Assembly: GCA_030426505.1 (NCBI GenBank)
Contig: JAUHYN010000001.1
Span: 1 to 39,626, forward strand
Length of the DNA stretch: 39,626 nucleotides
Origin: a bacterium
GTDB lineage: Bacteria > Myxococcota > Kuafuiibacteriia > Kuafuiibacteriales > Kuafuiibacteriaceae
Direction of reading: 5' to 3'
Shown here: positions 25,228 to 27,842 of the stretch, in pieces
Layout of the letters: every line of letters begins with the position of its first letter
Position numbering within the stretch: position 1 is the first letter of the stretch
Made by a program: the position numbers and the translations under genes
Notes under the pieces: model-generated
Told to the model about the DNA's origin: nothing
Database searches by the model: none
What the model saw: the letters and a program-made list of their open reading frames with translations, nothing else

Positions 25228-26376
25228 GTGGATTTCTCCCTGACCGAAGAGCAGACGCTCTTCCGTTCGCAGATCGTCGAGTTCGCGCGCCAACGCCTCA
25301 ACACCGGCGTGATCGAGCGCGACACCAATCACGAGTTCGACCGCGAAGGCTTCTTGGCGTGCGGTGAGATGGGCCTCCTCGGGCTCGCCGTCCCGGAGCA
25401 GTACGGCGGCCTCGGGCTCGGCTGCATCAGCTCGATGGTCGCGATGGAGGCGCTCGGCTACGGCGCGGACGACCAGGGCCTCGCGTTCGTCGTGAACACG
25501 CAGCTGTGGACGTGCGAGATGCCGATCCTCAACTTCGGTACGGACGCGCAGAAGGAGGAGTACCTCCCCAAGCTCGTGACGGGAGAGATCATCGGCGGTC
25601 ACGCGACGACCGAACCGAACTCGGGCTCGGACGCGTTCGCGATGCAGACGAAGGCCGTTCAGGACGGCGACGACTGGATCATCAACGGGAGCAAGACGTT
25701 CATCACCAACGCGCCGATCGCGGACGTGCTGATCATCTTCACGTCGACCGGAGAGACGCGCGGCTTCGGCGGCGGCATCACGGCGTTCCTCGTGAACACG
25801 GACACGGAGGGCGTCACGATCGGGAAGCCGCTCGACAAGATGGGGCTGCGCACGTCGCCGACCGCGGAGGTCACGCTCGAAGACGTGCGTGTCCCGTCGT
25901 CGCAGATGCTGGGGAAGAAGGGTGGCGGCGCCGCGATCTTCTCCAGCGAGATGGAGTGGGAGCGCTCGTGTCTGTTCGCGTGTCACCTCGGCGCGATGGA
26001 GCGACAGCTCGAGAAGTGCATCGAGTACGCCCGTGACAGGAAGCAGTTCGGGCAGTCGATCGGGAAGTTCCAGGCGGTGTCGCACCGCATCGCCAACATG
26101 AAGATGCGGATCGAGATGGGGCGGCAGATGCTCTACAAGGTCGGCTGGCTGAAGGATTCGAAGAAGCGCGCGGTGCTCGAAGCGGCGATCGCGAAGCTGT
26201 ACGTGTCCGAGGCGTACGTGCAGTCGTCGCTGGACGCTGTCGCGATCCACGGCGGCTACGGCTTCATGGCGGAGTACGAGATGGAGCGAATGCTGCGCGA
26301 CTCGGTGGGGAGCGTGCTGTACTCCGGCACGTCGGACATCCAGCGCAACATCATCTCGCGGTGGATCGGGCTGTGA
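25228..26376 (+). CDS. acyl-CoA dehydrogenase family flavoprotein (possibly carrier-protein dependent)
   Basis: ACAD blocks present: GHATTEPNSGSDAF, WIINGSKTFITNA, RKQFGQSIGKFQAV, IHGGYGF. The usual YEGT(S/N)EIQ reads LYSGTSDIQ, with no Glu at the MCAD-type base position. A Glu is present in MEWER, the IVD/LCAD-type position. Confidence 0.9.
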   Translation: MDFSLTEEQTLFRSQIVEFARQRLNTGVIERDTNHEFDREGFLACGEMGLLGLAVPEQYGGLGLGCISSMVAMEALGYGADDQGLAFVVNTQLWTCEMPILNFGTDAQKEEYLPKLVTGEIIGGHATTEPNSGSDAFAMQTKAVQDGDDWIINGSKTFITNAPIADVLIIFTSTGETRGFGGGITAFLVNTDTEGVTIGKPLDKMGLRTSPTAEVTLEDVRVPSSQMLGKKGGGAAIFSSEMEWERSCLFACHLGAMERQLEKCIEYARDRKQFGQSIGKFQAVSHRIANMKMRIEMGRQMLYKVGWLKDSKKRAVLEAAIAKLYVSEAYVQSSLDAVAIHGGYGFMAEYEMERMLRDSVGSVLYSGTSDIQRNIISRWIGL

Positions 26377-27842
26377 CGCCGTACCTCCTCGACGATCTCG
26401 TCTCGGCCGCAGCGGCGCGGACGCCGGAGCGCGTCGCAGTGCGCGAGCCGAAGGACTCGATCACCTACGGCGCGCTCGAGGAGCGTATCAACGGGGTGGC
26501 GGCGCAGCTCGCGTCGCTCGGCGTGGTGGCCGGCGATCGCGTCGGGCTGTTCATGCCGAAGAGCATCGACGCGGTGGTCGCGTTGCTCGGGATCCTGCGC
26601 GCGGGCGCCGCGTACGTCCCTCTGGATCCGGCCGCGCCCGTGGAGCGCGTGCGATTCGCATTGGAGCACTGCGGGGTACGCGTGTTGTTCGTCGCGGGGC
26701 GCCCGAAGAAGCAGGCGGACAAGGCGGACCCGCCGCTGCCCTTCGAGATGATCGCGCCGACGGAGGACCGCACCACGACGCGCCCGAACCGGACGCGAAC
26801 GGACCAGGACCTCGCGTACATCCTCTACACGAGCGGGAGCACCGGCTCGCCGAAGGGCGTGGCGATCACGCACCTGCAGTCGCTCACGTTCGTGCGCGCG
26901 GCGACGGAGGTCTTCGCGATCACCGGGGCGGACACGCTCGCGTCGCACGCGCCGTTCAACTTCGACCTGTCGATCATCGATCTGTTCTGCGCGTTCGCGG
27001 GCGGGGCGGAGGTGGCGCTGGTACCGGAGAAGTGGATCTCGTTCCCGGCGCAGATGGCGGAGCTGGTGGAGTCCGGCGTGACGGTGTGGAATTCGGTGCC
27101 GTCGGCGCTCGTGCAGCTCCTGGATCGCGGCGGGCTCGAGGCGCGCGACCTGTCGAAGCTGCGCCTCGTGATGTTCGCGGGCGAGCCGTTCCCCACGGAG
27201 CCGCTCACGCGCCTGAAGGCGGCGCTCCCGCACTCGACTTTGATGAACGTGTACGGGCAGCCGGAGGCGAACTCGTCGACGTACCACGTGGTGGAAGAGA
27301 TCGAGTCGCCGCTCCCGATCGGCGCGCCGTTCCCGAACTATGACGTGCTGTTGATCGAAGACGGCGCCATCGCGGACGAGGGCGAGATCCACGTGGTCTC
27401 GGCGGCGGTCGCGTCGGGCTACTACCGCGACCCCGAGCGCACCGCGAAGGCGTTCGTGCCGCACCCGGTCCGCGACGTACGAGGCTCGGTGTACCGCACG
27501 GGCGATCGCGCCGCGCGCGACGCGCGAGGGCGCCTGATCTTCAAGGGCCGCAACGACGACGCCATCAAGGTGCGCGGCTACCGCGTGGAGCTCGGCGAGC
27601 TCGAAGGCGTCGCGCGCGGTGAAGGCGTGGAGGACGCCGCGGCGGTCGCGACGCCGGACGCCGAGGCTGGGCACCTGCTCCACCTCTTCGTGATCGGCGA
27701 CGTGGACGCCGCGCGAGCGCGACTGGGGAAGATGCTCCCGAAGTACATGCAGCCGACCACGCTCGTCGCGATCGACGTGTTGCCCCGCACGCCGACGGGG
27801 AAGGTGGATCGGCGCGCGCTGCGCGATCGCTTGCCGGCCTGA
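26361..27842 (+). CDS. stand-alone amino-acid adenylation enzyme (NRPS A-domain / DltA-like)
   Basis: Adenylation motifs present: A3 LAYILYTSGSTGSPKGV, A4 FNFDLS (Asp present), A5 NVYGQPE, A8 GRNDDAIKVRGYRVELGE, A10 PRTPTGKVDRRAL. No C, T or TE domain is fused. The start is GTG 26361 or in-frame GTG 26373; the latter overlaps the ACAD stop as GTGA. Confidence 0.85.
   Translation: MDRAVTPYLLDDLVSAAAARTPERVAVREPKDSITYGALEERINGVAAQLASLGVVAGDRVGLFMPKSIDAVVALLGILRAGAAYVPLDPAAPVERVRFALEHCGVRVLFVAGRPKKQADKADPPLPFEMIAPTEDRTTTRPNRTRTDQDLAYILYTSGSTGSPKGVAITHLQSLTFVRAATEVFAITGADTLASHAPFNFDLSIIDLFCAFAGGAEVALVPEKWISFPAQMAELVESGVTVWNSVPSALVQLLDRGGLEARDLSKLRLVMFAGEPFPTEPLTRLKAALPHSTLMNVYGQPEANSSTYHVVEEIESPLPIGAPFPNYDVLLIEDGAIADEGEIHVVSAAVASGYYRDPERTAKAFVPHPVRDVRGSVYRTGDRAARDARGRLIFKGRNDDAIKVRGYRVELGELEGVARGEGVEDAAAVATPDAEAGHLLHLFVIGDVDAARARLGKMLPKYMQPTTLVAIDVLPRTPTGKVDRRALRDRLPA

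Follow-up and report, generated by a model that had tools for sequence, protein, structure and literature searches.

The window analysed here is the whole of a 39.6-kb contig (C220) belonging to a 9-Mb metagenome-assembled genome (MAG) that is 76% complete, with a GC content of 68.7% and with its closest relatives among MAGs labelled Deltaproteobacteria or Myxococcota. It carries two adjoining genes, one for a flavoprotein of the acyl-CoA dehydrogenase (ACAD) superfamily and one for a stand-alone amino acid adenylation enzyme (A enzyme), and we looked at what this ACAD-A pair makes and with which carrier protein. Both reading frames are open with a GC content at third codon positions (GC3) of 0.93, giving an ACAD of 382 aa and an A enzyme of 489 aa, or of 493 aa from an alternative GTG start at 26361. 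The GTG start of the A enzyme (26373-26375) overlaps the TGA stop of the ACAD (26374-26376), forming the GTGA reported in a preliminary description of this DNA, and gene calls in relatives keep an overlap of 4 nt (L001, L002, L125, L126) or 1 nt (L005, L123), so that the coupling of the two genes is conserved and no chance feature. The peptide motifs on which that description relied (FNFDLS and PTGKVDRRAL in the A enzyme, LYSGTSDIQ and MEWER in the ACAD) are all present in the translations. Comparisons were made with 19 other genomes of the family, with 401 genomes of the phylum and with individual loci (L-numbers); L001, L007 and G001/G089 represent one genome from the same genus as the window, L007 being its NCBI copy.

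By its sequence the ACAD is of the carrier-protein type represented by PigA, RedW and AnaB and is distinct from the enzymes of beta-oxidation. The N, M and C domains (PF02771, PF02770, PF00441) are all above cut-off with E values of 1e-26 to 4e-41, among NCBIfam models PigA (437.5 bits) and RedW (428.9 bits) come first with the next family at 323.8, and the best PDB match is 4irn (403.9 bits), the prolyl-ACP dehydrogenase AnaB of anatoxin-a synthesis, to which we counted an identity of about 46% from the printed alignment. Further PDB matches are 6cxt (303 bits) and PigA (288 bits). Other ACADs of the same genome are at most 39% and mostly 29-35% identical to it. The phylogenetic placement that the preliminary description had proposed as a check agrees with this, as a maximum-likelihood tree splits the ACADs adjoining stand-alone A enzymes from three ordinary ACADs of the genome with support of 100/99 and nests the window clade among ACADs whose A partners carry a proline code.

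Glu245, in the WER of MEWER, is invariant in 17 homologs and stands at what we take to be the base position reported for AnaB. The Glu of medium-chain acyl-CoA dehydrogenase (YEGT) is replaced by Ser, with YSGT or FSGT in all 17 homologs and the AnaB alignment in agreement. Six residues are invariant in the window ACAD clade and differ in the proline-code clade, among them Glu241 and Ser247 flanking Glu245. The signature EM(E/D)WER occurs in 119 of the best 120 ACAD homologs from a collection of 5.8 billion proteins and the clade is therefore large; in public data it amounts to more than 100 clusters at 90% identity. A pattern-based locus search with the ACAD, whose peptide patterns were too specific, returned only four close relatives, its remaining matches being generic ACADs of at most 42% identity.

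The A enzyme has no Pfam domains other than AMP-binding and AMP-binding_C and was rightly described as free of fused thiolation (T), condensation (C) and thioesterase (TE) domains. It clears the cut-off for amino acid adenylation (TIGR01733, 336.6 vs 317.4 bits), retains Asp235 (A4, FDLS) and Lys517 (A10, GKVDR), and is far from the XrtA/PEP-CTERM-associated ligase model (TIGR03098, 272 bits vs a cut-off of 592.35). Its best single-domain PDB match is the stand-alone proline ligase PltF (6o6e, 245.8 bits), which is also the best match for the pocket region alone (88.7 vs 70 bits). These comparisons indicate an enzyme of the amino acid type with a substrate that is proline-like by ancestry. A search for representatives of the A enzyme was of no use for estimating clade size, the best 150 matches being giant multi-module non-ribosomal peptide synthetases (NRPSs) with scores summed over several A domains.

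The specificity code that the preliminary description had suggested extracting is DLINMAVSSK. It was read from an alignment to PltF with the ten pocket positions in PheA numbering; PltF itself gives DLLYLALVCK in the same way, which equals the published consensus L(L/F)YLALVC of stand-alone proline A enzymes (PMC3874040) and shows the register to be right. The window code departs from that of the proline enzymes at 278, 330 and 331, of which 330 is one of three proline-contacting residues in a model of CcbC (PMC3874040). The same ten residues are found in the window and its close relatives (L007, L008, L009, L010, L110), with YGQTEAN at the A5 motif of the relatives, and more distant members of the clade (L003, L004, L005, L006, L122, L123, L124) read DLF(N/S)x(A/S)x(S/T)(S/T)K, again with YGQTEAN. 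Other myxobacterial A enzymes (L111, L113-L117), whose ACAD partners are 48-52% identical to the window ACAD, carry DL(L/S)Y(L/F)ALVCK and YGPTE. The ACAD residue differences mirror this split in the pocket code. There are thus two sister systems, the window belonging to the one that has the more polar pocket at 278, 330 and 331, and the substrate is probably something other than plain proline; the proline-to-pyrrole identity implied in the preliminary description is therefore not secured.

One genome of the family, G069, carries both systems, a window-type triad and a proline-code triad. The latter (L111, G069:C55:426000-445900) has the order carrier, A, ACAD and the code DLLYLALVCK and directly follows a 919-aa protein that ends in an SGNH/GDSL domain; it resembles a Dlt-like set for envelope acylation. 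At two other loci a gene of the arginase/agmatinase family lies directly upstream of the ACAD (L003:8795-9817 and L004:6708-7709, one in a MAG labelled Chloroflexi and one in a MAG labelled Aenigmarchaeota), a neighbour that might bear on the substrate of the triad.

No open reading frame of at least 50 aa with a PP-binding domain lies between 23400 and 28600, in line with the earlier remark that the pair has no adjacent carrier. Carrier domains are found in the window at 15656-15850, at 19872-20078 within a polyketide synthase (PKS) and at 39381-39548, the same three that had been named as candidates. Homology singles out the last, a 78-aa protein with the motif GIIDSLG (Ser35), and points to it as the partner of the ACAD-A pair. 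A carrier of about 80 aa directly adjoins ACAD-A in nine relatives (L002/L009, L008, L010, L110, L003, L005, L006, L122, L123) and lies one or two genes away in L004 and L124; the window carrier is 50-62% identical to those directly 5' of ACAD-A in L008, L009, L010 and L110. When seven triad carriers were used as queries against the full assembly, itself 76% complete, 39330-39563 was the sole match for six of them and was matched at 7e-18 by the seventh, which had one weak match besides on C507. The acyl carrier protein (ACP) at 15626 was rejected as the partner, being 19% identical to the 39330 carrier and lying about 6 kb upstream of the region for the 8-amino-7-oxononanoate synthase (AONS) domain of the PKS in five genomes of the family, three of them without ACAD-A; it belongs to the PKS operon.

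The separation of the carrier from the pair is conserved in the genus. The distance is 13 kb in the window, and in the sister genome G089 the ACAD (C67:131003-132148, 92% identical) and the carrier (C67:109516-109749, 94% identical) lie on the same strand 21 kb apart. Purifying selection acts on all three triad genes (dN/dS 0.07-0.19), with values of 0.07-0.10 for the ACAD, 0.18-0.19 for the A enzyme and 0.13 for the carrier.

As the preliminary description had stated for what it called a DltC-like carrier, a family 2 glycosyltransferase (GT2) gene follows directly, starting 5 nt past the carrier's stop codon. The window ends 55 nt into this gene, and the 1219-bp contig C322 carries GT2 residues 23-332, 81% identical to the ortholog in G089; since the gene runs on into C322 the two contigs are neighbours. 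In G089 the carrier is likewise followed by a 332-aa GT2 (PF00535) with a TPR-like tail, and the 5-nt spacing is seen in two genomes of the genus. Within the phylum sample this GT2 subfamily (E <1e-40) occurs in exactly the 6 of 401 genomes that have a window-type ACAD. It also adjoins distant triads in L005 and L123, matching the full length of the G089 protein at 36-37% identity (E 1e-63 to 1e-66) and thus about as well as the orthologs within the family (39-46%). The conservation of gene neighbourhoods, suggested earlier as a check, holds for the carrier and GT2 in G089 and for the GT2 beside the L005 and L123 triads; adjacency to the PKS is confined to the genus. Positions of the features are given in Table 1.

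Table 1 Features of the carrier/ACAD/A system in the window and of associated genes in related loci
Feature	Position	Strand	Basis
Carrier-protein-type ACAD, predicted aminoacyl-S-carrier dehydrogenase	25228..26376	+	Pfam, NCBIfam, PDB match, tree, motifs
GTGA start/stop overlap of ACAD and A enzyme	26373..26376	+	Sequence; same overlap in gene calls of relatives
Stand-alone amino acid adenylation enzyme	26373..27842	+	Pfam, TIGR01733, PDB match to PltF, pocket codes
CCG (Pro) codon at the invariant A5 Thr position	27261..27263	+	Window copy only
199-aa secreted or lipoprotein-like protein and AsnB-type amidotransferase	27881..30354	+	Pfam, NCBIfam
78-aa carrier, inferred cognate of the ACAD-A pair	39330..39566	+	PF00550, homology to triad carriers
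5' end of GT2 glycosyltransferase gene (TPR-like tail)	39572..39626	+	Sequence; PF00535 in the G089 ortholog
GNAT-like proteins of about 360 aa	L003:14055-15140; L005:5791-6873; L006:12770-13846; L123:8620-9660

The loci L003-L006 and L123 place the triad among glycan genes as well. In L003 and L004 its neighbours are those of a plain glycan locus, namely GT2, GT4, Wzy, deacetylase and DegT genes. Beside the triads of L003, L005, L006 and L123 there is an unannotated GNAT-like family with faint GNAT matches only, no NCBIfam match and a mutual identity of 27-65%, which is a candidate for the missing acyltransferase, and an arylamine-N-acetyltransferase homolog is found beside those of L005 and L123. 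Neither was found in the window's genus. Within the literature collection searched, no paper on the decoration of polysaccharides with pyrrole or prolyl groups came up.

Taken together we consider it on balance probable that the pair is two thirds of a carrier/ACAD/A cassette with its third gene 13 kb downstream, and that this cassette yields an oxidised aminoacyl product linked to a glycan. We infer the chemistry of the individual steps, and likewise which amino acid is used, how far it is oxidised and what the acceptor is, as follows. The A enzyme would adenylate a proline-like and probably more polar amino acid and attach it through a thioester to the phosphopantetheine arm of the 78-aa carrier, where the AnaB/PigA-type ACAD would dehydrogenate the tethered aminoacyl group with Glu245 as the base. 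The resulting dehydro-, imino- or pyrrole-type acyl-S-carrier would then give up its acyl group to a GT2-connected acceptor, probably a glycan or glycolipid, and the cassette would operate apart from the lipid operon formed by a fatty acyl-AMP ligase (FAAL), the ACP and the PKS with its AONS domain (PKS-AONS). The observations of the preliminary description are confirmed and its interpretation is supported in part: its central proposal, a modified aminoacyl-S-carrier made by an A/carrier/ACAD triad, is supported. It had held that this proposal would fall if the A enzyme activated fatty or aryl acids, if the ACAD grouped with ordinary beta-oxidation enzymes or if relatives kept the pair without any carrier, PKS or exopolysaccharide genes. 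None of these was found, the A enzyme being by sequence of the amino acid type and the ACAD of the carrier type.

To our knowledge A/carrier/ACAD triads have been described only as sources of starters for antibiotics, pigments and a cyanotoxin. The cyanotoxin system AnaC/AnaD/AnaB of anatoxin-a synthesis (a proline A enzyme, an ACP and a prolyl-ACP dehydrogenase) consists of the same three protein types as the cassette, and AnaB and the window ACAD agree in the Glu of WER and in reading YSGT where other enzymes have YEGT. However the Ana proteins feed a type I PKS and the window cassette does not travel with a PKS, AnaB has Ser against the clade-specific Glu241 of the window ACAD, and the consensus for stand-alone proline enzymes differs from the window pocket code. 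PltF/PltL/PltE, PigI/PigG/PigA and RedM/RedO/RedW convert prolyl-S-PCP to pyrrolyl-S-PCP on a peptidyl carrier protein (PCP). The likeness to Plt lies in PltF as the best stand-alone PDB match of the A enzyme, and that to Pig and Red in PigA and RedW as the best NCBIfam models of the ACAD, although both scores are under the equivalog cut-offs. The window differs from all three in its code (DLINMAVSSK vs DLLYLALVCK), and the window scans of open reading frames gave no halogenase, no separate ketosynthase (KS) and no other pyrrole-pathway genes.

We know of only one characterised triad whose product is esterified to a sugar, CloN4/CloN5/CloN3 of clorobiocin synthesis. There the pyrrolyl group made on the carrier is reportedly moved to the deoxysugar of a small aminocoumarin glycoside by the dedicated acyltransferases CloN2 and CloN7. 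A triad product placed on a sugar is likewise the working model for the window cassette. The D-alanylation and glycine modification systems DltA/DltC and AlmE/AlmF also pair a stand-alone A enzyme with a carrier of about 80 aa, in that case for acylating an envelope polymer as proposed here; unlike the window cassette they have no ACAD. DltA models score below their cut-offs on the A enzyme (250.3 vs 476 and 235.7 vs 559.85) and the DltC model matches the 39330 carrier weakly and below its cut-off (32.7 vs 68), and among the window reading frames scanned there were no MBOAT or DltD-type/SGNH genes.

The preliminary description had thought a link to the PKS-AONS conceivable, in which ACAD-A would make a pyrrolyl or dehydroprolyl starter that the neighbouring synthase elongates and releases in the manner of PigH and RedL. 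The PKS-AONS (16602-23597, KS-AT-KR-DH-ACP-AONS) does end only 1.6 kb upstream of the ACAD, with a similar proximity in G089, and as it starts with a KS it needs a starter delivered in trans. The phyletic patterns nevertheless differ: 18 of the 19 other family genomes have the synthase together with its upstream ACP and 5 of the 19 have an ACAD ortholog, synthase and ACAD are adjacent only in the genus, and outside it they lie 3.8 Mb apart (G084) or on separate contigs (G069, G113, G041). The operon has its own FAAL and ACP, which are kept in genomes without ACAD-A, and no PKS was found near the distant triads. Synthase and ACAD are moreover separated by minus-strand reading frames directly past the PKS stop, at 23603-24577 in the window, where probably no more than a short 3' stretch is genuinely a gene, with two called genes at this place in L001, and by further genes ahead of the ACAD. 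We regard this link as extremely unlikely. Also very unlikely, if somewhat less so, is that the cassette is decaying here, with the separation of the carrier and the change of the A5 Thr to Pro leaving a non-functional A enzyme. The A5 Thr is a strongly conserved catalytic-core residue of adenylate-forming enzymes. The window alone reads YGQPEAN, departing from the intact core NxYG(P/Q)TE, and all relatives of its clade that we examined, including contigs with a 96%-identical ACAD, have YGQTEAN. However the three reading frames are intact with high GC3 and their dN/dS values are low, G089 has the same split layout and an A enzyme that retains the Thr, and in an assembly of fragmented metagenome data a single base could be wrong.

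A more serious competitor, which we still hold to be unlikely, is that the triad with the 39330 carrier builds a small diffusible metabolite and that the adjacency of carrier and GT2 is an accident of rearrangement. The characterised relatives Plt, Pig, Red, Ana and Clo all serve natural products; in L124 the triad lies among an ectoine-synthase-like protein, a carbamoyltransferase and a 2-oxoglutarate oxygenase; and in three family genomes (L008, L009, L110) the unit is carrier-ACAD-A followed by a transporter of the major facilitator superfamily (MFS), encoded at about 12750-14475 in each locus, of 500-574 aa and with a match to TLC (nucleotide-transporter-like), with no glycan or glycosyltransferase genes nearby. 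The MFS gene is however not found in G089, and G000 holds, on contig C724, no more than a relative of 44% identity. Against a small metabolite also stand the shared distribution of ACAD and GT2 subfamily over 401 genomes, the position of this GT2 beside the L005 and L123 triads, the 5-nt spacing in both genomes of the genus and the plain glycan loci L003 and L004. The transporter loci nonetheless count against a glycan-linked product, and the target of the triad could differ between lineages. Several other points tell against it too. Four of the six genomes have the GT2 at a distance from the triad and among neighbours that are not conserved, the six may form one subclade, in which case the co-distribution would not count as independent events, and the distribution of the AsnB ortholog is nearly similar to the triad/GT2 pattern, matching it only in part. 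Neither the window nor G089 yielded an acyltransferase for the transfer from carrier to acceptor. The ACAD remains under the equivalog cut-offs for PigA (437.5 vs 500) and RedW (428.9 vs 650), and the Pro at A5 may impair the window A enzyme, or may be an assembly or sequencing error.

A bolder version of the glycan-linked product is that the clade is a large, uncharacterised sister of the proline-to-pyrrole systems which activates a polar proline analogue and places the product on a glycan via a dedicated GT2 subfamily. Its marks would be the A code DL(I/F)N..(S/T)SK, the A5 motif YGQTEAN and the extra active-site Glu of the ACAD. One candidate substrate is 4-hydroxyproline, because a single two-electron oxidation and a dehydration already give a pyrrole. 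We put this forward as speculative and on present evidence improbable.

Immediately upstream of the ACAD, at 24055-25179, lies a 374-aa protein without a Pfam, NCBIfam or PDB sequence match; full-length relatives were found within the genus alone and are separated there from the ACAD by an inserted trypsin-like gene. It was considered as a GNAT-like partner and rejected, as it is not a homolog. The two genes downstream of the A enzyme follow on the same strand at gaps of 38 nt, keep this order in G089 and are probably co-transcribed.

For genome mining the locus holds two lessons, namely that an orphan ACAD-A pair beside a PKS is not to be taken for a pyrrole starter pathway before its distribution has been checked, and that homology finds the cognate carrier even 13-21 kb away. 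The triad is a widespread, unstudied three-gene set, and what is new here is its split layout, the dichotomy of the pockets and the co-distribution with the GT2. Window-type members have a different conserved substrate pocket and recur in glycan loci rather than in PKS/NRPS clusters. Should the clade be a sister of the proline-to-pyrrole systems acting on a polar proline analogue, this would be an undescribed decoration of surface sugars that extends across many phyla of bacteria and to MAGs with an archaeal label. If the working model of a glycan-linked oxidised aminoacyl product holds, the cassette would represent a hitherto unknown amino acid-derived decoration of bacterial surface sugars together with its dedicated GT2 partner.

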